This document shows positions 31,389-61,483 of a stretch of DNA of 64,000 nucleotides, piece by piece; within the stretch, counting starts at the first letter, position 1, and every line of letters starts with the position of its first letter. Source of the DNA: an uncultured Gemmatimonadaceae bacterium (lineage in GTDB: Bacteria > Gemmatimonadota > Gemmatimonadetes > Gemmatimonadales > Gemmatimonadaceae); contig CAWGJO010000027.1 in assembly GCA_963822945.1 (NCBI GenBank), positions 128,001-192,000 of the forward strand, in the 5' to 3' direction. The translations under genes and the position numbers were made by a program. The notes beneath the pieces are model-generated. The model had not been told where the DNA came from, ran no database searches, and saw only the letters and a program-made list of their open reading frames with translations.

Positions 31389-31865
31389 TCAGGGCGGGGC
31401 CGAACGGACGACGAGCCACAGCCCGACGCGGCATCGCCGCGGGCCATCGGCCCACCACTGCGCGCCGAGCGCGGCCCGCGCGAGCTGCCCGGCCACTCGT
31501 TCGGTAATGATCTCGTCGAATTGATCGGTGGGCGGCGCGCCGCGACGCTCGAAGGTGCGGAACACGCTGCGACTGTCGATGTGCAGCCCGACCAGTTGGC
31601 GCACCAGCTCGCGCTCGGCGCGCAGACGCGCGACCGTGCAAACACTGGCCGCGTTGGTGCTGTCGGCAACCGCGGTGCCGACCGCGACCGCGATCGAGTC
31701 GCGCCCGACCAGCACCAGCAATGCGCCGTCGCCGTCGGCCAGCGGGGGGCGCGCGAACTCGGCGCGCACCTGGACGGGCACCGACGGCGGCATCCCCGCC
31801 GCCGTCTGCGCGCCGAGCCGTGACGCGACGAGGAGCGCCGCGGCCAACGTCGAGAGCCGACTCAT
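31389..31865 (-). CDS. Secreted protein, LPP20/FlgP/FlgT-N-like fold (tentative)
   Basis: Signal peptide; AVGTA...ARLRAERELVRQLVGLHIDS...IITERVAGQL pattern; ATGA overlap with upstream gene. Confidence 0.55.
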   Translation of the reverse strand: MSRLSTLAAALLVASRLGAQTAAGMPPSVPVQVRAEFARPPLADGDGALLVLVGRDSIAVAVGTAVADSTNAASVCTVARLRAERELVRQLVGLHIDSRSVFRTFERRGAPPTDQFDEIITERVAGQLARAALGAQWWADGPRRCRVGLWLVVRSAPP

Positions 31866-33322
31866 GGTCCGGTGCTCCCGAGGGGCCGCCGGAAGTCGTC
31901 CACCGGTGCCGGGTGATCGCACACCCGAATGGAATCGGCCGTTCCGTTCGGCCAGTGTGCGAACGCCACGCGACACCGCACCGGCGGCAGGCGATGGTCG
32001 ATCTCGAGCGGTTCGACGCGCAGTTCGCGCAACGAAGCCAACTGCGGAGGCGTGAACCAGAGGTCGACGACGGCCGTGTCGGCGCGTACCGCCCTTCCCA
32101 CCTGCACCCAGAGCACCACGTCCTGGGCTCCCGCCACGACGGGAGTGCCCGGGCCCCCGCTGGTACGCTCGCGGAACGGACGCACCAGCCGTACCCTGAC
32201 CGCCGGCTGGGAGTCGGCGGTGAGCAGCGCGGGGTCGAAGGCGCCGCTCCACGGCGCACGGAAGACCTGACGCAACGTCACGGCGCGATCGCCGACGACG
32301 AGGCGCATCCGTGCCTCGTCGACCACCGTGCGCAGGTAGTCCACCACGGCAAAGAACGCTGCGGTCGAGCGCAGATGCACGTAGCGCGCGCGCTCCGCGG
32401 CCCGATCCACGAACGCCACCGCGAACCCGCCGGCGGTGCTCAGCGCGGGGAACAGCGCCGGGACGCGATCCGGCGCACCCGCCGTGACGACGGGGGGATC
32501 GAACCCCGCGAAGCTATCCGTCGGCGCCAGCACCGCCCGGGCATCGAGCAGCCGGCGACTATCCGGACCGCAACGGGAGACGCACGGATGCACCATGCGC
32601 ACCTGGGCGGTGGTGGGCGGATACCGCAGCCGGCGCTCGCCCCCGGGCCCGGCGATGGCCGAGAGGATGGCCTCCGCCCGTTGCATGGCGGCCGCGTAGT
32701 TCGCGTTCGGCGTGCGGATGAGGAGCACGCGCATGCGCAGCCGGTCCCCGTCGGGTACCGCCGGACCGGGGGCCACCCGATACGCGTAGAGACTGGGCTG
32801 GTGCTCGATGTCGGCGAAGATGGATTGGACGATCTCGCCTTCCGCGCGGCGCCGTTCGGCGTCGATCGCGTCGCCGGCCGCCCAGAGATCCCCGGGCACG
32901 CGGACGCTGGTGCCGGGAACCGGCGTGAGCGGCTGCTCGCGAATGCGCGAGACCATGGCGAGGATCCGCACGTGCACCGTGCCATGGCTGCGTGCGCTGT
33001 CGAGCAGGACGTAGCGGGTGACGATGCCGCGGCTCACCGTGTGGATGGAGTCGCTGACCACGCGATCGCCGCGTACGGTGATGGCGCTGGCGAGCATGGC
33101 GCCGGCCCCCGACTCCACGGCCATTCGAACGGCCTGCGCCAGCGCCGCGGCGAAGCCGGTGCCGCTGCCGACGGCCACCACCGGGATCGGCGGGTCGGCG
33201 GCGGCATCCGGCGGATGACGATCACCGCGGGGCGGCACGCGTTGGGCCGCGGCGCGCGCCGCGCCCGCGACCAGGATCGCGCCGATGGCGATCCCTCGCC
33301 ATCGCCTACGGACGCGGGTCAC
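31862..33322 (-). CDS. Secreted protein with FlgT N-terminal-like domain and unknown C-terminal region
   Basis: Signal peptide; VAVGSG...ALAQAVRMAVESGAGAMLAS...DSIHTVSRGIVTRYVLL pattern; GTGA overlap. Confidence 0.6.
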   Translation of the reverse strand: MTRVRRRWRGIAIGAILVAGAARAAAQRVPPRGDRHPPDAAADPPIPVVAVGSGTGFAAALAQAVRMAVESGAGAMLASAITVRGDRVVSDSIHTVSRGIVTRYVLLDSARSHGTVHVRILAMVSRIREQPLTPVPGTSVRVPGDLWAAGDAIDAERRRAEGEIVQSIFADIEHQPSLYAYRVAPGPAVPDGDRLRMRVLLIRTPNANYAAAMQRAEAILSAIAGPGGERRLRYPPTTAQVRMVHPCVSRCGPDSRRLLDARAVLAPTDSFAGFDPPVVTAGAPDRVPALFPALSTAGGFAVAFVDRAAERARYVHLRSTAAFFAVVDYLRTVVDEARMRLVVGDRAVTLRQVFRAPWSGAFDPALLTADSQPAVRVRLVRPFRERTSGGPGTPVVAGAQDVVLWVQVGRAVRADTAVVDLWFTPPQLASLRELRVEPLEIDHRLPPVRCRVAFAHWPNGTADSIRVCDHPAPVDDFRRPLGSTGP

Positions 33323-33912
33323 GGCATCGAATCGCGCGGGATCGTACGCTCGAGCTCCCGGTATGCCTGCGTCGCGCGCAGGCGGGTATAGAGCGCCTCG
33401 TTCGCCTTCAGCTCCCGGAGCAGGCGTTCCGTCATGTCCGCCCTGGCGGCCGACATCAGGACGAACGCGCGGTAGCCGCCCGGTTCACGTTCGAGATACT
33501 GCGACCGGGGGGCGGTGTTGACGAGCGTCGTGTGCACGACCCCTTCGACGGTGCGCGTGAACTGGTCGAGGAGTTGCGTGGTGGAGTCGCGCCCCACCTC
33601 CTCCGCAAACTGCTTGTTCAGCACGTCGTAGGTGGCCTGCATCTGTTCGGCCAGCGTGGCCCGCGCGATCGTCTGCGCCTTGGTGAGGGCCAGCTGCATG
33701 TCCTCCGACGTCGCCGACGCCGTGGCGACGATCGTGCGATCGTCCCGCGGCGGGTTGACGTACCAGTCGGGCACCGTACGTCCGGCGTCGGCGGGTTTGA
33801 CGTCGGGCAGCGTGGTCACGTGCGTTCCCTGATGGCAGCCCCACGCGATCGCGGCGCTCACGAGGAGCGCGACGGGCACGAACGGACGGTGGCGCGGAAC
33901 ACTTCGATACAT
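33319..33912 (-). CDS. LPP20-family lipoprotein
   Basis: Lipobox-like AIAWGC; PDWYVNPP; ATASATSEDMQLALTKAQTIARATLAEQM; GGAG RBS. Confidence 0.75.
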   Translation of the reverse strand: MYRSVPRHRPFVPVALLVSAAIAWGCHQGTHVTTLPDVKPADAGRTVPDWYVNPPRDDRTIVATASATSEDMQLALTKAQTIARATLAEQMQATYDVLNKQFAEEVGRDSTTQLLDQFTRTVEGVVHTTLVNTAPRSQYLEREPGGYRAFVLMSAARADMTERLLRELKANEALYTRLRATQAYRELERTIPRDSMP

Positions 33913-33977
33913 TCGGGGCTCCTTGCCGCGGGGCCGGCGGTCCGCCCCGCGTGGCGAGTATGGTCCTTCGCCTCCCG

Positions 33978-34006
33978 AGTATCGACCGTTGGGGCGCGCG
34001 ACTTTA
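33978..34006 (-). promoter_or_regulatory. Sigma28 (FliA)-like promoter for the LPP20 operon
   Basis: TAAAG-N15-GTCGATACT on the minus strand. Confidence 0.75.
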
Positions 34007-34024
34007 GCCGCCGGACTCGAGCAT

Positions 34025-34053
34025 TCAAGTCCGCACGGTATCTTGCCGATACT
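34025..34053 (+). promoter_or_regulatory. Sigma28-like promoter, divergent, pointing antisense into the EAL-HDOD gene
   Basis: TCAAG-N15-GCCGATACT on the plus strand. Confidence 0.6.
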
Positions 34054-34080
34054 CATCAACGCGGGGTCTGCCCGGCGGCG

Positions 34081-36604: not shown

Positions 36605-37460
36605 TCACGGCGACCCGCGGCCCGGGCTCAGCTCCGGCGCGGGGTCGGGAAGCGCCGTCGTGTCGTTGCCGTCGGGAAGTTGATGCACGAAGGGGAGCAG
36701 AATGGTTACCCGCCGGTTGGCCGCGCTGAACGGGTGCGCGGGATCGCGCAGGTCGCGATCGGCCATGCCTTTCACTTCGGCAATGCGGCTCTCGGGCAGG
36801 CCGGCGGCTTCGAGCACGCGGCGCGCCGCGTTGGCCCGGTCCGCCGACAGTTCCCAGTTGGTGTACGTGCTCGTCCCATACGGCGCGGCATCGGTGTGCC
36901 CCTCGATCTCCACCGGGTTCTGGAGCGCGACCAGTTCGCTCCCGATCATCGTGACCACCCGCAGGCCGATGGACGTGAGCTGCGCCGATCCCCGGGCGAA
37001 GAACGTGTCGCCCGAATCGCTCTCGACGAGTTCGATGCGCAGCCCGTTCTGGCCGACGACGATCTCGACGTTGGCGGCCACCTTCTGCAGGCCCGGAGAA
37101 TTCGTGAGTGCCTGCTTGATCTCGCCGCCGGTGACCGAGAGCTGCTGCTGCTCGCGCATGTACGCCACCGTGCGGAACACGTTGGCCTGCAGGGCAGACG
37201 GGGAATTGCCAGTCGAGAGCGGGCTCCTGCCGCTCCCGTAGCCGTGGCGGTATCCGACCGGGTTCGAGAAGTAGCCCTCGACGGCGCGCTTCACGTTCTG
37301 GTCCATGCCCGACGATCCACATCACCAGGAAGAACGCCATCAGTGCCGTGACGAAGTCGGCGTACGCCACTTTCCATGACCCGCCGTGATGCGCGCTGTG
37401 AGCCGCCTTCTTCTTGACGACGCGGATGATAACCGGCCGGTCCTCTTTCCGATCGCGCAC
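36605..37460 (-). CDS. motB: Flagellar stator protein MotB, frameshift near 37309
   Basis: HGGSWKVAYADFVTALMAFFLVMWI in one frame; OmpA-like IEGHTD, NWELSADRAN, NRRV in the next; one extra base in a 3-G run. Confidence 0.9.
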
Positions 37461-38661: not shown

Positions 38662-40127
38662 TTATGGCACCATGTTGAGGATGGCCTGCGCCATGTCGTT
38701 CGCTGCCTGCACCACCTTGGCCGCGGCCGCATACCCCTGCTGGAACTGCATGAGCTTGGTCATTTCCTCATCCAGCGACACGCTGCTCACCGATTGGCGA
38801 CGCGTATTGGCCTGCTGGGCGAGCGTCTGATAGGTCGACGCGTCGTTGCCGGCCGAGCTCACGTCAGCGCCGAGGCGCGTGACCAGCGACTGGAAGCTGT
38901 CGCCGAACGAACTGTTGGGCGGCAGCCCCACCTGGGCGGCGAAGGCGGCAGCGCCCATCGTGGTGCTGAGCGCCGTGGCGCCGGTGCCGTCTCGGAGGGC
39001 GCCAATGGCCAGCGCCACCGAATTGTCGCCCGTGGACGTGGTCCCCGACGCGATCACCGAACTGTCGGCCTGGACGGCCGACGACAGCTTGATGGTTTCC
39101 GCGGTGGTTGCCGTCGGATCGAAGAAGTCGATGCCGCTGCCCGTGGGGCCGACGGGAGGCGCCCCATTCGCGACGCGGATGGCGTCGCCCGATGCCGTGT
39201 AGCCGGTCTCGTGAATCGTGTTCACGGCGTTCACCACGCCGCGCGCCAGCGCGTCGAGTTGGCTGCGTACCGACGGCAGTTCGGTCTGGAGGAACGTGAC
39301 CAGGGTGCCGAGCGACCCGCCGCCACCGGCGGAAGCGGCGTGGAGTCGCCGCTGACGGTGAGCACGGGGGCGCTGGGCGTGCCGCCCAGGGTGAGCGTTC
39401 TCGCGTCGGCGCCGCTGACCACCGACACGCCGCCCAGCACCACGTTTACCCCGCCGTTGGTGCCGTTCAGTACCCGCACCGGCGCCAGTTGCGACAACTG
39501 GTCGAGCAGGCGGTCGCGCTGGTCGAGCAGGTCGGGCGCCTGGTGGCCGCCCGACTCGCTGGCGGTGATCTGGCGGTTCAGATCGCCGATCTGCCGCGCC
39601 AGTTGGTTGAACGACTGCACGTTCTGATCGAGTTGCGAGGCGGCGCTCGCCTGGGCGCTATCGAGTTGGCGCGCGTCGGTGTTGAGCAGGTTGGCCAGTT
39701 CGCCGCCGCGAGCGCGGACGACCGACTGGGCCGATGGATCGCCCGGGGTGTTGGACAGGTCCGACCATGACGACCAGAAGGCGTCCAGCGATGCGGCGAG
39801 CCCGGTGTCCGACGGTTCGTTGAAGATCGACTGGACGCCGGTGAGCAGGTCCTGATGGAGCGAGGCCGCCGAGCTGTTGGCCGACTGTTCACGGTACGTG
39901 GCGTCGAGCAGCGTGTCCCGCGCGCGGGTGACGTCGGCAATGGTGACGCCGGTCCCGAACACCCCCTGCGGCGTGACCAGCGGCGGGGTGGCCGAGAGTT
40001 CCGCGCGTTGCCGCGAATACCCTTCGGTGGATGCGTTGCTGACGTTCTGCGCCACCACCTGCATGGCGCCCTGCTGGGCGCGGGCCGCGGTGCTGGCGAT
40101 GCTGAGAATGCTCGTGAGCGATGACAT
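38662..40127 (-). CDS. flgK: Hook-associated protein FlgK, frameshift near 39324
   Basis: AQNVSNASTEGYSRQR, IFNEPS, LLDQRD; after the shift GGSLG...SVSLDEEMTKLMQFQQGYAAAAKV. Confidence 0.9.
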
Positions 40128-40662: not shown

Positions 40663-41013
40663 TCAGCGCCTCGACGCCGAAGGTGGAATGGTCTGCGCGG
40701 CGTCGAGCGCCGCGTCGTTCCCAACCGGCGGGGTTCCGCCGGGCAGCCGGCTCGCCAGTTGGCGGTAGACGCTCTCGGCCAGGCCGTCGTGCCACTGCTG
40801 GGGTGCGGCGTCGGCGATCTTTTCGTCGAACAGGCCCGTGAACATGTCCTCTCCCGCGCCACCGTCGGCGTATCCGTCGTGGGGCACCGTCTGGCGCATG
40901 GCCTTGAAGAGCTGCTCCACGAAGACCCCCTCGAGTTGGTGCGCCGTGCGCCGGAGCCCCGCCTCGGGCGTTTGCGCGGTCGACGCGGCCGCGCTCGCGT
41001 TCACCGTTGTCAT
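40663..41013 (-). CDS. flgJ: FlgJ-like rod-binding protein, no muramidase domain
   Basis: LEGVFVEQLFKAMRQTVP, EDMFTGLFDEKIA, GLAESVYRQL; only 116 aa. Confidence 0.88.
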   Translation of the reverse strand: MTTVNASAAASTAQTPEAGLRRTAHQLEGVFVEQLFKAMRQTVPHDGYADGGAGEDMFTGLFDEKIADAAPQQWHDGLAESVYRQLASRLPGGTPPVGNDAALDAAQTIPPSASRR

Positions 41014-42076
41014 CGTACGATCACCTCGGCCGTGATCGCGCCCACGTCGCGCAGGGCCTCGAAGATCGCGGCGATCTGCGACGGTGGTGCGTTCACAGCA
41101 TGCAGCGCGGCGACGAGCGTCTGCACGCTGCTCCCCGCCGCCAGGTCCACCTGGCCCTGACGCCGGACAGTATCGGTCGGAAGGGCGCCGATCCTTAGCG
41201 CAATGTCGCCGGCGCTGGCCACGCCCTCGCCCACCGTCAGGTCGCCCCCCGCAACCACGGTGCCCGACCGGGCATCGATCACCACCCGACCGCTTCGCGC
41301 CGGCGCCACCTTGAGCTGTGCCACGCGCGTCATGGTGGCCGCGCGCTCGGCGGGCGTTCCCTTGAGCGCCAGGGACACCTGCCCCGGGTCGTCCACCACC
41401 GCCACGCTGTCGGCCAGCGCCTGGTTGATGGCGGCGGCAATGCGCGCGGCGGTGCCGGCATCCGGTTGCCGGAGTGTCAGATGCGCCGGACCGCCGGACG
41501 GGAGCGGCGTGCGCGGCAATTCCGCTTCCACGAGCCCCCCGTCGGTACCCGCGCGCTCGCCACGTCGGACGCCCGCATGCCGCCGGTCCAGGCGCCGGTC
41601 CAGGCGCTGCCCGCGGTCGGCCGGTCGGTGCCCACGAGCAGCGTGCCCTGCGCGCTACCCACCGGGGTGCCGCCCACGTCCATCACGAGCGGCGTCATCC
41701 AGAGCGTGCCGCCGCGAAGCGACCGGGCATCGCCGATCGACGACACCTGCACGTCGAATCGACCGCCGGGCCGCAGGTACGGCGACACCTCGGCAGTGAC
41801 GAGCACCGCCGCTACGTTCCGCGTGTTCAGCCAGTCGGGCGGCACCTGCACGTTGAATCGGCGCAGAATGTTGGCCACGGATTGGACCGTTTCCATCGAC
41901 CCACGGCCGGTGGCCCGGTCGCCCGTGTTCGGGAGGCCGACCACGAGCCCATAGCCCATCAGCCGGATCGGAACGGCCTGGTCGGCGATCACCAGATCGC
42001 GCACGGCAACATCCTGCGCGCCGGCGGAACCGGCGGCCACCGCGGCGGCGACGGCAAGCATCAGCAGTCGTTTCAT
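41010..42076 (-). CDS. flgI: P-ring protein FlgI, frameshift near 41540
   Basis: LMGYGLVVGLPNTGD, NVAAVLVTA, SSIGDARSLRGGTL; second frame VVIDARSGTVVAG...GAITAEVIV. Confidence 0.9.
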
Positions 42077-55216: not shown

Positions 55217-56514
55217 TTACTGTTTCAGATTCACGACCTCCTGGAGCATCTGATCACTCGTCGTGATCACGCGGCTGTTGGCCTGGAAGCCACGCTCGGC
55301 CACGATCATGTTGGTGAACTCGTTGGCCAGATCCACGTTCGACATCTCGAGTGCGCCGCTGGTGATGAACGACTGGCTGCCCTGAAGGGGGAGGCCCAGC
55401 ACCGCGCTGCCCGAGTTGCCCGTGGTGGTATACATGTTGTCGCCCGACCGCATCAGGCCGCTCGGGTTGTTGAAGTCGGCCAGCACGATCTGCCCCAGCG
55501 GCTGGGTGACGCCGTTGGTGAACGACCCGGTGATCAGTCCCGTGCGGTCGATGGAGAAGCTCTGGAGCGTGCCGGCCGTGAAGCCGTCCTGGTTGCTCAT
55601 CACGGCGGTGGTGCTGCCCGAGAAGCTCGACAGCCCGTTCACCGTTCCACTCCCCGCATCGAGCGTGATCGACATCGGCTGCGCCCCCGGCGGGGTGAAC
55701 GTAATGGCCGGAATGGACGACGCGGCGGTGTCGAGCGTGCCGTCGTTCTTGAACACGAACTTGCCCGGTCCGAAGTTGGCCGGCGCGGTGTTGTCGTAGT
55801 TCAGGTTCGTCGGATCCACCTGCCAGTCCCACTCGTCGGGCGCGGTCTTCCACATCGTGACCTTGAGGTCGTGTTTGTTGCCCAGGGTGTCGTAGGTGGT
55901 GATGGTCGTGTCGAGGAACGCGCCGGCGTTGGCCGGATTGGCGAGGTCGGCGGCGTTGTTGACGCTGCCGGTGAAGATCGGCGCGCCCGCATCGATGTTG
56001 CCCGACAGCGTGACTTTGGTGGTCGCCGAGGCCGACGTCTTCTGGCCGAACGGCAGCTTGATGTCCTGGATCTGATCCGTCATCTGGCCGTTGACCGCCA
56101 GCTTGCCCTGGACCACGAAGCCGTTGGTCGGTGACACCAGCCGGCCGTCGGCATCGAGCTGGAAGTTGCCCGACCGCGTATAGAACTGCTGGTTGCCCTT
56201 GGCGACGACGAAGAACGCGTTGCCCTGGATGGCCATGTCGGTGTTGACGCCGGTGGTCTCGATGTTGCCCTGGCTGAACAGCGTGTCGATGCTCCCGATG
56301 GCCGAGCCGAGGCCGATCTGGATGGGGTTGGTGCCGCCCGATTCCCCGGGGGGCGGCTGGCCCCCTGGAGCAGCTGCGCGAACGCTTCCTTGAACGTCAC
56401 GCGGCCGGACTTGAACGCCACCGTGTTCACGTTGGCGATGTTGTTGCCGATCACGTCCATTCGGGTCTGGTTGTCCTGCAGACCGGAGACGGCGGCGAAG
56501 AGGGAACGCATCAT
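55217..56514 (-). CDS. flgE: Hook protein FlgE, frameshift near 56339
   Basis: [12 protein letters not shown]...[13 protein letters not shown] in one frame; [11 protein letters not shown]...[12 protein letters not shown]...RGFQANSR in the next. Confidence 0.93.
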
Positions 56515-56543: not shown

Positions 56544-57221
56544 TCAGCTGCCGCTGATTGCGGTCACGGAGCCGAAGGGGATGGTGAGCGGGCCGGCGCC
56601 GAGGACTGGGCCATTGGCGGTCGCCTGCAGGGAATCGATCTTCGCGACGGTGTACGTCGTCACCGGCACGCTGGCGCCGGTGGAGTCGGTGACCTCCACC
56701 TGGTAGGTGTAGGCCCCGCTCGTCAGCCCGGCGGCCGTCGCGCCGAGGGTGATCTTCTGATGGCCGCCGTTGAGCGAACCGAGGTGCTCGGTGTCCACCT
56801 CGGCGCCGGAGGCGTCGAAGATGTGAACGGTCGCATCGCCGCCGGTGTTGCCGACATCGAAGGTGATCGTAGGCGCGGTACCGTTGGTAACTGCTACCTG
56901 ATTGCCGGTGGCCGTCACGGTACGCCCGATGGTCGTGGCGGCGGTGTTCATCGTCACCGCCTGTTCGATGCCCTGCGACGCCGTGTTCTGCGCCGACAGC
57001 GCCGAGTTGATGTCGACCAGTTGATTGAGACTCGAGAACTGGGCGAGCTGCGCCGCCAGGTCCTTTCCGTCCATGGGATTGGTCGGATCCTGATTCTTCA
57101 TCTGGGCAACGAGCAGCTTGAGAAAGTCGTCCTGACCCATCGACGTGTTCATCGACGTGGACGCGGCTGCCGATTGCGTCGCGCCCGCCGAGGAAGACGT
57201 GGGCTGGATGGGAGCCGTCAT
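56544..57221 (-). CDS. flgD: Hook capping protein FlgD
   Basis: [29 protein letters not shown]. Confidence 0.96.
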
Positions 57222-59086
57222 GATGCGGATTCTCCGTGTGGTTTGGGCTGGGGTGATCGCCGGCCGGGGTTTCCCCACTGGCGGCGGGGCTGGCCGGCGT
57301 TCGATCCGCCCGACCCGCGTGAACTGCCTCGCGGAGGGTCGCCGCCTCCGCCCGGATTGCCGTTGGAAGTCGTGGCCGGCGCGGCGTCGGGAATTCCCCC
57401 GGCCCGTGCCGTCGCGTCGTCCGTACGCGACGCCGCCGATGCGTCGTGCACGCGAAGCGTCCCGACGTCGAGTCCGTGCTCCTGGAGCGTCGCGCGCAGC
57501 TGGCCCATGTCACTGGTCAGACGCTGCGAGAGAGTGCGATCCTGTGTGCCGACGGCCATCTGCACCGTGGCACCGCGCATGTTGACCCGAATGCGGTCGG
57601 TGGCGCCGTTCGCGCCATCGAGGCGCAATACGATCTGCGAGACCGGCTGCGCCATGACGGCATCGTGCGCGGCGTCGATGCGGGCAATCTGCGCCCCGAT
57701 CGACGTGCGCGGGGCCGGCGCCTCGATCGGCGCCGGCGCCAGGATGCCGTGGTTCATGTCGTGCGCGGGCGCGGCAGCGCGGTCGGGGCCGGCAACCACC
57801 ACCGGTGATTGACTGGCCGTGACCGTGGGCGACTGGTCGCGATGCGGCGCCCGGTCGCCCTGCGCGCTGCCGTCCGCGTTCGTCCCGCCCTGATCGTGTG
57901 CCGAGTTTGCAGGCGCGGCGCTCGATGCGGCCGCGTTCGATGGCGACGGCGCCTGCAGTCGGTGCCCCGTCACCGGCGCGGCCGGCGCGCCCTCCGCTCC
58001 GGCTACCGCCACCCGTGCCACTGCCGCCACGCGGGCAACCGACGCGACGGAGGCGACGGTGGCCACGCGCGCCACGCGTGCTGGCTGTGCAACGGCTGCG
58101 GGTGGCACAGCAGGTGCGGCGGGTGCCGCGCTCGACGGCGCTGCGGCGGGCGCGGGTGCCAGGTCGGAGGCTGGAGCGGCAGTCGCACGCCCCGCGATCG
58201 GGCGCGGGACGTCCGAACCCTCCGGTGTCGACTCCACATGCCCCGGATCCTGCGGGCCGAGCGTCCGCAGTCCCAACTGCGCCGCAACCTGCGCCAACCG
58301 TTGATTGGCGAGCGCCGGATCGGGTGCGTTCGTGATCGCCAGATCGGCGGCGAGCCCCTGCGAATGCAGCGAATGGTCGGTCCAGGTGACGACCGGGCCC
58401 GGCGTGGTGCGCCCCTGCGCGAACAGCTGGTCCTGCCGCGCCTGCGTACGGTATGTCTCGCGCACGTCCACGTCGTATCCGTAGTCGTGGCTCAGACGTG
58501 CGATGACCGCCGTGAGTCTGTCGCGAAACGCGGGCTGCAGCGCCGCCATGGATCGGATCACCGCACCGGCGGCGCCGGTGGGCGTGACGGGTGCCGCGGT
58601 CGTTGCGGGTGCTGCGGGTGCTGCGGGCGGCGCCAACGCCGGCGTCGGCAGCGGCGCGTCGGCGGACGGATCGAGGGCCGCGCCCTGCCCGCCGAGCAGC
58701 GTGCCGAGCAGTGTGGCTGGCTGCGGACTCGCCGCCGGCAACTGCACCGATTCGACGACGACATCGTCCAGCGAGAGATTCCGGAGCGGCGCGGCGTCGG
58801 CGAGGGACGCGAGCGACACGTAGCCAGCGGCGGGCGGCGCGTAGCCGGTTGGCGGCGTGCCGGTACGGCCGCCGGCCGGCGGAGCGAGGGTCGCCGGCGC
58901 GGGCGCCGGGAACGCCACCGGCAGAAAGCTCGCCAGCGCCACGGCGAAGATCGGCACGGGAGTTGTGTCCTTGCCGTCCGCTTCCGGCTTGCCGGGGTCG
59001 GACGGATGGCTGCCGGCGAGTGCCGCGGCGGGCTCGAAGCCGGACGCGAGCGCGGGGGCCGCGACCACGATGGCGGGAGGCATCAT
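57218..59086 (-). CDS. fliK: FliK-like hook-length control protein with embedded M15 metallopeptidase domain
   Basis: Canonical fliK position before flgD; Ala/Pro-rich; C-terminal T3S4-like IVLRLD...[12 protein letters not shown]...[10 protein letters not shown]; internal [24 protein letters not shown]. Confidence 0.75.
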
Positions 59087-59682
59087 GGCAGCGGGGGGCG
59101 GAGCGTGAGTTGGCTCATCGCCGCCACGCGATCGGGCGGAAAGTTCGAGAGGATGTCGGCGGCGTGGCGGTTGTCCATTGCCGAGATCACCATCTGCGCG
59201 TCGGCGTTGCTCATCTGGACCAGCACTTTGGCCGCGTCGCGCGCCGGCATGGCCGCAAAGAGCCGTGCCAGGCGGCCCACCCGCGCCGTGTCCACGCGCT
59301 TCACCGTGTCGCGCGGCATCGCCGCCGTGACGATGCCGGCCTTCATGACGTGCCGCAGGTCGACCGGCGGCGTCGAGTCATGGTGTACGGCGAGCGCGGC
59401 GGGATGCCGTTGCGCGGGCTGCGTATCGGCGACCGGTGCCGCGACGGGCTTCGTCGCAACGGGGCTGGTCGCGTCGTGGGTCGTGGAATCGACGGTGGCC
59501 GAATCGGCCGCCGTCGCCACATGCGACCCGGAGTCGTTCGCGGCTCCCTTCGCGGCCGCCGGTGCCGCTGTCGAGTCGGCCCGCGGATGAGGCGCGTGCC
59601 GGCCCAGGGCGACGGCAACACCCGTGCTCCCGCCGAGGCCCACCACGAGGCCGAGCACGGCCATCACGATCAGGCGCTTCAT
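59083..59682 (-). CDS. MotE/FlbB-like protein with MgtE N-terminal-like domain
   Basis: N-terminal TM; RLARLFAAMPARDAAKVLVQM...AADILSNF; sits between fliJ and fliK. Confidence 0.8.
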   Translation of the reverse strand: MKRLIVMAVLGLVVGLGGSTGVAVALGRHAPHPRADSTAAPAAAKGAANDSGSHVATAADSATVDSTTHDATSPVATKPVAAPVADTQPAQRHPAALAVHHDSTPPVDLRHVMKAGIVTAAMPRDTVKRVDTARVGRLARLFAAMPARDAAKVLVQMSNADAQMVISAMDNRHAADILSNFPPDRVAAMSQLTLRPPLP

Positions 59683-60146
59683 CAGCGGTTCCCTCCGGCT
59701 GCCGACCGCGGGTGGCCCTGGTTGAAGCGCGCCAGCGCCACGGCGTCCATCGCGACCCGGTCGGCCGCGGCGGCTTCGAGGCGCACCACTTCGAGGTGGC
59801 GTTCGTGCAATCGATCGAGCGCGCACCGGTCGCGCGATGCTTCGTCGTGCAGTTCGCGCGCGCGCGCGGCGATTTCGTGTGCCGCGGCCACCGCCTCCTT
59901 GGCCGCGTCGAGGCGCGCATCGATGGACGTGAGGACCGAGGAGAGCGCGTGCAGCTCGCCGATCGTGGCACCGGCTCGCGCGGCGGCGGCGATCTGCGTC
60001 TCGCCGGTAACGCGGGCGTCGCACACGGCCTCATGGGCGGCGCTCGCCCGGTCCACGTCGCGACGGGCCTTGACGAGTTCGGCGGCCACGCGTTCTTCGC
60101 GTTCGATGCGCAGATCGTGGACGCGCTTCAGGGAGAACTTCTTCAC
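59682..60146 (-). CDS. fliJ: Export protein FliJ
   Basis: FSLKRVHDLR, coiled-coil, MDAVA near C-terminus; directly after fliI. Confidence 0.85.
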   Translation of the reverse strand: MKKFSLKRVHDLRIEREERVAAELVKARRDVDRASAAHEAVCDARVTGETQIAAAARAGATIGELHALSSVLTSIDARLDAAKEAVAAAHEIAARARELHDEASRDRCALDRLHERHLEVVRLEAAAADRVAMDAVALARFNQGHPRSAAGGNR

Positions 60147-61483
60147 GGGACTACCGGAGTGGAGGTGAGGGCGCTGGCGCTGCCGGCGATGGCCGTCAGC
60201 GAGGCGCGCGTCTGGGCGAGCGACGAGCGCTCGTCGGGGCGTTGGCGGAGCAGCTTGGTGATCGGGTCGCGCAGTTCGAGCGCGATGTCGACCGCGGGCC
60301 GGCTGCCACGCTGGTAGGCGCCTACGAGGATCAGGTCTTCGGTTTCGCGGTACGCCGACTCGAGGGACAGCAGCGTGTCGGCCGCCGCCCGATGCTCGGT
60401 GTCGATGATCTGATCGCGCACGCGGCTCTTGCTCTCCAGTACGTCGATGGACGGGAAGTGCCCCGCCGACGCGAGCTTGCGCGTGAGCACGATGTGTCCG
60501 TCGAGAATCGAGCGCGTGGCGTCGGCGATCGGTTCGTTGAAGTCGTCGCCGTCCACGAGCACGGTGTAGATGCCGGTGATGGCACCGGAGCGCGAGGGCC
60601 CGGCCCGCTCCAGCAGGCGGGGCAGCGCGGCGAACACCGACGGCGGATACCCCTTGGTCGTGGGGGGCTCGCCGACGGCGAGCCCGATCTCGCGCCACGC
60701 CGTTGCCACGCGTGTCACCGAGTCGACCATCAGCAGAACGTGCTTGCCCTGGTCTCGGAAGAACTCGGCGATCGCCGTGGCCACCAGCGCGCCGCGGGCG
60801 CGCACGAGCGCGGCCTGGTCGCCCGTGGCGACGATCAGCACCGATCGCGCCAGCCCTTCGGGCCCGAGTGAGTGTTCGATGAAGTCACGCACTTCGCGGC
60901 CGCGTTCGCCGAGGAGCGCGATCACGTTCACGTCCGCCTTCGCGTGCCGGGCGATCATGCCGAGCAGCGTGCTCTTGCCCACGCCCGATCCGGCGAAGAT
61001 GCCCACGCGCTGGCCGCGGCCGATGGTGAGCATGCCGTCGATGGCGCGGACGCCCGTCTCGAGCGGTTCGTCTACCAGGCGCCGCTCCAGCGGATTGGGC
61101 GGTTCCGCGGAGAGCGGCACCCGCTCGTGCGCGTCGAGGCGTCCCTTGCCGTCGATCGGACGCCCCAGCCCGTCGAGCACGCGGCCGAGCATTTCCGGTC
61201 CCACCTCGGCGCCCGACAGGCGTCCCAGCGGCTCCACGGAACTGCCCGCGTGCAGGCCGTCGAGTTCCCCAAGCGGCATGAGGAGAATGCCGCGCTCGTG
61301 AAAGCCGACCACCTCGCCGAGCACCGAGTGGTCACCGCCGGTGCTCGTGATGCGGCACAATTCGCCAAGCCCGAGTTCGAGCCCCACGGCTTCGATTACC
61401 AGGCCCACGACGCGCACCACGCGGCCAAAAGCGGCGAAACGCGCACACTCGTCCACGGCACGGAGGGCAGCTCTACACGTCAT
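60143..61483 (-). CDS. fliI: Flagellar export ATPase FliI
   Basis: GIFAGSGVGKS, GERGREV, GEPPTTKGYPPS, LDGHIVL. Confidence 0.97.
   Translation of the reverse strand: MTCRAALRAVDECARFAAFGRVVRVVGLVIEAVGLELGLGELCRITSTGGDHSVLGEVVGFHERGILLMPLGELDGLHAGSSVEPLGRLSGAEVGPEMLGRVLDGLGRPIDGKGRLDAHERVPLSAEPPNPLERRLVDEPLETGVRAIDGMLTIGRGQRVGIFAGSGVGKSTLLGMIARHAKADVNVIALLGERGREVRDFIEHSLGPEGLARSVLIVATGDQAALVRARGALVATAIAEFFRDQGKHVLLMVDSVTRVATAWREIGLAVGEPPTTKGYPPSVFAALPRLLERAGPSRSGAITGIYTVLVDGDDFNEPIADATRSILDGHIVLTRKLASAGHFPSIDVLESKSRVRDQIIDTEHRAAADTLLSLESAYRETEDLILVGAYQRGSRPAVDIALELRDPITKLLRQRPDERSSLAQTRASLTAIAGSASALTSTPVVP

Follow-up and report, generated by a model that had tools for sequence, protein, structure and literature searches.

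Sequence comparison and structure modelling support the identification of a flagellar ruler protein, FliK, that carries a catalytically complete M15 peptidase domain within its ruler region. Its gene lies in a 64,000-nucleotide stretch of DNA from an uncultured Gemmatimonadaceae bacterium (hereafter the window; part of contig C27 of source genome G000, which is 88% complete), where the open reading frame (ORF), here named fliK-M15, occupies positions 57218..59086 on the minus strand and encodes 622 amino acids (aa). The fusion is supported as a conserved trait of the Gemmatimonadaceae and Longimicrobiales. Both parts are of known kinds and their combination appears undescribed: no description of a FliK-M15 fusion was found in the full-text literature, with most subscription papers and supplements outside its coverage.

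Identity of the protein as FliK

The switch domain at the C-terminus, of the T3S4 type (residues ~461-552; 57431..57706, minus strand), was recognized by Pfam, Foldseek and fold comparison. Flg_hook matches residues 479-550 when the protein is scanned by itself (E 4.5e-6, 26.8 bits, below the 29.8 cut-off) and reaches 30.7 bits at the same place, above the cut-off, in a search of G000, where it has no other match. AlphaFold2 (AF2), given a 60-sequence alignment, predicts two confident domains, at residues ~178-290 and ~480-556, in an otherwise low-confidence Ala/Pro-rich chain. The second domain, with predicted local distance difference test (pLDDT) values above 90, is matched by Foldseek to the FliK structure 2rrl (E 7.4e-4) and to 5cuk, the injectisome ruler PscP (E 4.7e-3); comparison with 2rrl gives a modest Z score of 6.8, with a root-mean-square deviation (rmsd) of 8.9 over 81 residues. 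At the opposite end, residues 1-176 (58559..59086, minus strand) form a predicted disordered ruler segment rich in Ala (26%) and Pro (19%), with pLDDT mostly below 50 and a single short helix at residues 46-54. A crude test flagged a Sec-type signal in 0 of 205 homologues, yet caught only three of six Sec-exported controls.

The protein shares with FliK of Salmonella and Escherichia coli (PF02120; 2rrl) and with PscP its C-terminal T3S4-type domain and a long low-complexity N-region, here predicted to be largely unfolded and interrupted by the folded M15 domain. Its likeness to Salmonella and E. coli FliK extends to its position directly before flgD and to its being the sole FliK of the genome. 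Unlike these rulers, it holds a folded, catalytically complete peptidase and a (Val-Ala-x)n repeat within the ruler region, and the literature searched yielded no natural insertion of this kind. Nor is it a dual-domain FlgJ, as the ORF lacks a Rod-binding domain and the FlgJ of the cluster lacks a hydrolase. An earlier, sequence-only reading of this DNA had described a 622-aa ORF here, with a segment ending in DPGHVE encoded by 58232-58549 in frame with a FliK-like C-terminal domain for which a Flg_hook match was expected; translation confirms the ORF and the segment, and the Pfam match and the 2rrl and 5cuk folds bear out the identity of the C-terminus.

The M15 peptidase domain

The LAS-type zinc peptidase domain spans residues 177-290 (114 residues; 58217..58558, minus strand) and was identified by sequence, PHROG profiles and predicted fold. 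The motif SxHxxGxAxD and a distal His are present as S239, H241, G244, A246, D248 and H283, and the domain combines these zinc ligands with a candidate general base, an oxyanion Arg and the Hedgehog/DD-peptidase fold of the M15 family. The five catalytic residues are R213 (58448-58450), H241 (58364-58366), D248 (58343-58345), D280 (58247-58249) and H283 (58238-58240), all on the minus strand. In the endolysin LysB4, H80, D87 and H132 bind zinc, D129 is the base and R50 forms the oxyanion site, with D129A and R50Q inactive (PMC6354061). R213, H241 and D248 align directly to LysB4 R50, H80 and D87; the final third of the domain cannot be aligned by sequence, so D280 and H283 were assigned by the DxxH spacing of LysB4 D129/H132 and by structural overlap.

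The closest relatives by sequence are lysins. Searches of PDB sequences returned LysB4 (E 1.2e-6) and Ply500 (E 4.2e-6), the order by profile being Ply500 (E 7e-11), LysB4 (E 3e-10) and, far behind, LdcB (E 0.011). PHROG endolysins match with E 6e-17, and 25 phage records match the domain, those among the matches listed being mostly annotated as CwlK, endolysin or peptidase. The predicted fold (pLDDT mostly above 90) points the same way: the top four structural matches are all L-Ala-D-Glu endopeptidases, namely Ply500 (2vo9; Z 11.6 over 112 residues, rmsd 3.6), LysECD7 (8q2g; Z 11.6), LysB4 (6akv; Z 11.1) and ChiX (5opz; Z 10.8). The fold, zinc site and catalytic Arg are common to these M15C enzymes and the FliK domain, which differs in having a shorter C-terminal lobe, unaligned by sequence and without a Peptidase_M15_4 match. 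It also differs in lacking a cell-wall-binding domain and in sitting in a flagellar export substrate instead of being holin-released. ChiX reportedly also serves a secretion process.

An M15C-like (L-Ala-D-Glu) specificity is likely, as judged from these sequence and model comparisons. The sequence-only reading had proposed an intact-looking M15 domain nearest to L-Ala-D-Glu endopeptidases, and this stands; the central Peptidase_M15_4 match that it also anticipated was not obtained, the sole Pfam trace of the domain in the whole protein being VanY (E 0.037). Neighbours in the ESM Atlas are labelled VanY/M15_4. As PF13539 is unmatched, the ORF is best filed as M15 and M15C-like, not as an M15_4 member. 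A degenerate domain is ruled out for the window copy by its full catalytic set.

Conservation of the fusion and the associated repeat

Conservation was assessed on 121 sequences, comprising the query and 120 listed of 160 near-length proteins from a domain search. All five catalytic residues are kept in 121/121, FliK_C is also present in 115, and many non-catalytic positions are invariant too, for example in a 12-residue flap and in the TLG-x-x-DPGH strand. The database names of these homologues are M15 peptidase, FliK or hypothetical. One protein, P0015, bears a second, partial M15-like segment (residues 169-214) ahead of the full domain.

A scan of GTDB yielded 162 loci, 80 of which were kept. 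M15 and FliK_C lie in one ORF at 75 of these independent loci, with four cut by a contig end and one split across two overlapping frames; flgD directly follows the fusion at 70 of the 75 fused loci, the other five ending before flgD. The nearest named record, Gemmatimonadaceae genome L095, carries the same fusion (97.4% identity over 16.8 kb). Fragments of the gene occur on short contigs from four sequencing runs (one of them a metatranscriptome), none of which spans M15 to FliK_C. The fused loci and L095 together rule out separate genes or a chimeric assembly, and the fusion is neither chance nor an assembly artefact. A profile search with E up to 1e-30 gave 454 clusters at 50% identity; among the best 150 of these, the catalytic motif occurs in 149 representatives and FliK_C in 133, the other 17 having short or aberrant tails that look like fragments or frameshifts. 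Clusters in the ESM Atlas at >=0.9 are exclusively Gemmatimonadota-dominated, and the labels of the 80 kept GTDB loci include one 3.5-kb contig assigned to Chloroflexales and a few called only 'bacterium'. Occurrence in other phyla is possible, since the survey covered the best 150 of the 454 strong representatives.

Substitution patterns are similar in the two folded domains. In the three closest pairs, nonsynonymous/synonymous differences per site (pN/pS) for M15 are 0.004/0.059, 0.016/0.162 and 0.045/0.313, and change in M15 is about that in FliK_C and below that in the flanking linkers in most comparisons. Pooled ratios of nonsynonymous to synonymous substitution rates (dN/dS) over 10 pairs are 0.33 for M15, 0.35 for FliK_C and 0.52 for linkers, values distorted by saturation, GC bias and the choice of pairs on M15 pS, so that evolutionary rates were judged on the close pairs.

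The (Val-Ala-x)8 repeat at residues 338-361 (58004..58075, minus strand), which is conserved, had escaped the sequence-only reading. Its x residue is mostly R, Q, T or S, and the repeat resembles the hexapeptide pattern of left-handed beta-helices. The repeat is present in 115/121 homologues and in 125 of the 133 full representatives, never ahead of the M15 domain, and lies past the last His by a median of 46 residues (quartiles 37-58, range 14-210). None of the 30 FliKs without an intact M15 domain has it (20 from family f2, eight from family f10, and those of genomes G087 and G138, introduced below). The repeat is gained and lost together with the intact domain, and looks like part of the peptidase module. 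Monomer AF2 models, both of the full protein and of the M15 domain plus repeat, give it no structure, and a complex prediction of the M15 domain and repeat with FlgJ scored 0.00.

Distribution in the phylum and the FlgJ rod cap

The phylum set comprised 201 genomes, 53 with FlgD (the same 53 with FlgJ) and 148 without FlgD. The flagellated genomes fall into families f1 (18, including G000), f2 (22), f4 (one), f7 (one) and f10 (11). Strong matches to the M15 domain number 18, 16 of them in f1 and the others in f4 and f7. Each comes from a flagellated genome and is joined to FliK_C beside flgD; the 148 genomes lacking FlgD yield none. Of six weak matches, none is fused to FliK_C; the five that were scanned proved to be stand-alone proteins, and M15 Pfam hits occur in four of them. 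FlgD is absent from all three same-genus relatives of G000; transfer of a whole flagellar cluster or frequent loss is possible.

In the window, flgJ (40663..41013, minus strand) encodes a single-domain rod cap. The sequence-only reading had given it as 116 aa without a hydrolase, which is confirmed: Rod-binding is its sole Pfam domain, it matches the N-terminal third of TIGR02541, and flgN begins a few bases past its stop. FlgJ is likewise single-domain in all four f1 genomes scanned. In f10, FlgJ bears an SLT lytic transglycosylase domain in 10/10 scanned (L025, L028, L029, L031, L034, L036, L040, L041, L045 and L046), and none of the eight full FliKs scanned, with open frames of ~960-1120 aa, contains M15. 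The contrast of f10 with f1 fits a trade-off between the two enzymes, whereas f2 has neither. The FlgJ-SLT of f10 is itself a type worth comparing with published FlgJ classes.

Proposed function

We give a probability of roughly 0.55 to FliK-M15 acting as an accessory wall peptidase in the periplasm, which it would reach through the flagellar export system while the rod grows. Export by the flagellar type III system would be unfolded and N-terminus first, and during rod growth the protein would enter the periplasm where the rod tip lies. The M15 domain would then fold there, bind zinc and cut stem peptides, most likely at L-Ala-D-Glu, beside the nascent rod, with the result that a larger share of basal bodies would pass the wall. 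Once the rod is past the outer membrane FliK would go outside, which would limit the enzyme in time and place. The peptidase would serve efficiency, having been gained once in a single clade, and would not be an obligate substitute for the FlgJ hydrolase; the (Val-Ala-x)n repeat would perhaps be a docking or export-pause element of the module. Such an accessory role is compatible both with the strict conservation inside the clade and with the absences and losses that surround it.

The delivery route has experimental precedents. Secretion of FliK is intermittent while rod and hook grow, and an engineered Salmonella FliK-β-lactamase (Bla) fusion is active in the periplasm before outer-membrane penetration, most highly when the rod cannot reach the outer membrane; outside the cell the fusion folds improperly, according to the authors (PMC13344023). 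FliK variants of 363-785 aa still set hook length, at 0.2 nm per residue, and long insertions are tolerated (PMC6126814). Together, these results imply that a ruler can bring an enzyme into the periplasm, to the tip of the rod, when the wall must be crossed. The engineered protein resembles FliK-M15 in being a ruler with an enzyme, but is artificial, and its Bla fusion site is not stated in the available sections of the paper (PMC13344023). The sequence-only reading had suggested that an exported ruler-hydrolase opens the wall to compensate for the short FlgJ: periplasmic delivery is made plausible by FliK-Bla (PMC13344023), while the necessity is undercut by the distribution described below. 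A bolder version, which we hold to be doubtful, makes the ruler the main wall-opening enzyme of Gemmatimonadaceae and Longimicrobiales, with the repeat, ~50 residues behind the domain, pausing export or docking the chain while the peptidase folds and cuts. If so, length measurement and wall opening would be a single export event, and a further solution to wall passage would stand beside hydrolase-bearing FlgJ, separate hydrolases and passive pores.

Several observations weigh against the accessory-peptidase proposal. At the level of the domain, the folds of VanX, VanY and LdcB score Z 9.6-9.9, within ~2 Z units of the top matches, and Hedgehog domains share the fold at Z 8.7-9.1; the C-terminal third has no sequence alignment to Ply500 or LysB4, and Peptidase_M15_4 (PF13539) is matched neither in the protein scan nor in G000. 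The unaligned third, the missing M15_4 match and the proximity of VanX, VanY and LdcB leave the specificity unfixed. The spacing between the domain and FliK_C ranges from 76 to 328 residues among the representatives, so the ruler does not keep the enzyme at a fixed depth. Among relatives, strong M15-domain matches are absent from all 22 flagellated f2 genomes, and M15 from all 20 of their FliKs examined (two of the 22 were skipped at contig edges and two of the 20 are truncated), although f2 FlgJ is single-domain in 8/8 scanned; M15 is therefore not needed for a flagellar gene set with a single-domain FlgJ. Within f1, the FliK of G087 (L075:4120-6054) lacks both M15 and repeat while its genus-mate G182 keeps the domain, and the FliK of G138 (L076:1034-2755) has a recognizable but decayed M15 segment and no repeat. 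Both clusters look intact over the regions fetched, although motA and motB of G138 were not found in the fetched stretch.

Two quick trees, made without bootstrap, place these cases. A tree of FliI, FliG and FlgD from 50 loci separates f2 from the M15 clade with a Shimodaira-Hasegawa-like approximate likelihood ratio test (SH-aLRT) value of 100 and nests both losses inside the clade, G087 beside G182. In a tree of 61 FlgD rows rooted on f10, the M15 clade (98) emerges from within the f2 lineages or next to them, the deep branches there being weakly supported; this suggests that the short FlgJ predates the gain of M15. The clade unites Gemmatimonadaceae and Longimicrobiales and leaves out f2, although f2 shares its order with f1; the flagellar cluster may thus have been transferred. 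The simplest history that this suggests is a short FlgJ first, then one gain of M15 and at least two losses. A fusion made necessary by a FlgJ without hydrolase is not supported, in view of the short FlgJ of f2 without M15, the two f1 losses and Salmonella, where FlgJ hydrolysis raises efficiency and is dispensable (PMC13584718). As to the co-occurrence with a short FlgJ that the sequence-only reading proposed to check, the scanned f1 FlgJs are indeed short and f10 pairs FlgJ-SLT with FliKs lacking M15, but f2 breaks the pattern.

A substitute hydrolase hidden in f2 was also considered, and none turned up in the f2 FliKs or, for SLT and M23, near the clusters. No other Pfam domain scored above cut-off in 18 full-length f2 FliKs. 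In 42 flagellated genomes, no contig with flgD or flgJ bore an SLT match within 70 kb of either gene, and in 28 genomes no listed M23 lay within 40 kb, three matches being unlisted; these results do not exclude fragmented assemblies or other families such as amidases and NlpC/P60. A hand-picked subset of 112 ORFs, also covering G000 and G065, contained no substitute among those scanned from parts of the f2 clusters of G160, G043 and G196. In the cluster of G000, too, no further wall hydrolase was found: at the stated completeness of the genome, SLT matches lie on another contig and no glucosaminidase was found, and C27 has no M23 among the matches listed.

Alternative explanations

A non-catalytic or non-wall role is unlikely, yet several features speak for it: the zinc site could serve to bind stem peptides or a partner protein, or the folded domain could act as a brake or anchor and so tune the export of the ruler and the specificity switch. 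Hedgehog N-domains, which have the same fold, are known mainly as ligands. Many non-catalytic positions are invariant, the repeat travels with the domain, and the rate of FliK secretion bears on the timing of the switch (PMC13344023). However, the general base D280 and oxyanion R213, which go beyond the zinc ligands, are as invariant as those ligands in the 121 homologues, and the closest relatives by sequence and fold are active lysins. A different chemistry or timing, in which D,D- or L,D-carboxypeptidase-like trimming remodels the wall for seating of the P-ring or stators without opening a hole, has only a slim chance of being right. It draws on the VanX, VanY and LdcB folds, the weak VanY hit and the ESM Atlas neighbours, but the profile values separate Ply500 and LysB4 from LdcB by many orders of magnitude, and the timing of an early substrate would suit the rod better than the stators.

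The remaining alternatives differ in what the enzyme would be for. That wall opening has moved from FlgJ to FliK, such that rods cannot cross without M15, seems quite unlikely. The single-domain FlgJ of the window and of the four f1 genomes scanned, set beside the FlgJ-SLT of f10, agrees with an obligate replacement, and PleA of Caulobacter and SltF of Rhodobacter show that separate hydrolases can be essential (PMC13584718); obligate compensation for the short FlgJ is nevertheless weakened by f2, by a short FlgJ older than the gain and by two nested losses with intact clusters. Release as an effector or scavenging enzyme, attacking or digesting the walls of other bacteria during hook growth, is very unlikely. 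In its favour, phage endolysins and virion peptidases are the nearest relatives, FliK passes out of the cell as the hook is assembled (PMC13344023), and the patchy losses would suit an ecological trait. Against this, intermittent secretion would be a poor route for a bulk enzyme, the AF2 model has only two folded domains and thus no cell-wall-binding domain, complete ORFs offer 0 strong matches free of FliK, and FliK-Bla failed to fold outside the cell, a failure that may be specific to Bla (PMC13344023). The effector release raised by the sequence-only reading accordingly finds little support.

Comparison with other flagellar wall enzymes

Rod passage through the wall is currently under revision, FlgJ hydrolysis being dispensable in Salmonella and Bacillus apparently using no wall enzyme (PMC13584718). 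FlgJ occurs with a glycan hydrolase, with a peptidase or with neither, and Caulobacter and Rhodobacter need separate wall enzymes (PMC13584718). Dual-domain FlgJ, a rod cap joined to a glucosaminidase or peptidase (or to SLT in f10), resembles FliK-M15 in placing a wall enzyme on an early export substrate bound for the rod tip (PMC13584718); in FliK-M15, by contrast, the carrier is a transiently secreted ruler and not a resident cap, and the enzyme class is M15. Where FlgJ lacks a hydrolase, the wall is cut by SltF of Rhodobacter, PleA of Caulobacter and BB0259 of Borrelia (PMC8517470; PMC13584718). Each of these is a protein in its own right, and SltF and BB0259 are lytic transglycosylases, whereas the candidate enzyme of FliK-M15 is a peptidase within FliK.

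FliK-M15 would extend the known FlgJ classes by a new carrier, and a natural ruler-enzyme fusion would show a second, catalytic job for FliK as well as tolerance of a folded domain by the ruler. A single phylum here offers a natural comparison of FlgJ-SLT (f10), no dedicated enzyme (f2), FliK-M15 (f1, f4 and f7) and two losses. Cultured Gemmatimonas species are flagellated (PMC10581226), so that catalytic and length effects could be separated in that genus. The reach of the finding is limited by the confinement of the fusion to one clade, in which M15 looks optional, as closely related genomes that share the short rod cap do without it.

Gene neighbourhood and other observations

The gene belongs to a minus-strand run in the order fliF-fliG-(fliH position)-fliI-fliJ-MgtE_N gene-fliK-M15-flgD-flgE. 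ATGA-type overlaps join it to both neighbours: the stop of the upstream gene to its own start, and its own stop to the start of flgD. Directly downstream, flgD (56544..57221) encodes the hook cap (Pfam FlgD, E 4e-23); directly upstream is a flagellar gene with an MgtE_N domain (59083..59682; E 2e-6), which has the same position in relatives, preceded by fliJ and fliI (59682..61483), the export chaperone and ATPase (Pfam FliJ, ATP-synt_ab and T3SS_ATPase_C).

The hook subunit gene flgE (55217..56514, minus strand) is split by the loss of one base in a G run at ~56347-56353. Both L095 and contigs from runs X1 and X7 have the missing base, so the split is most likely an assembly error. Four genes in the window are each broken across frames: flgE (~56350), flgI (41550-41640), flgK (39280-39470) and motB (37260-37300). 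Just outside the flagellar cluster, two ORFs of 246 and 486 aa (31862-34059, minus strand) have no clear Pfam match. At its other end, the cluster runs on past the window (G000:C27:194495-201843, L175) with a sigma-54 response regulator, flgL, fliW, flagellin, fliD and fliS.

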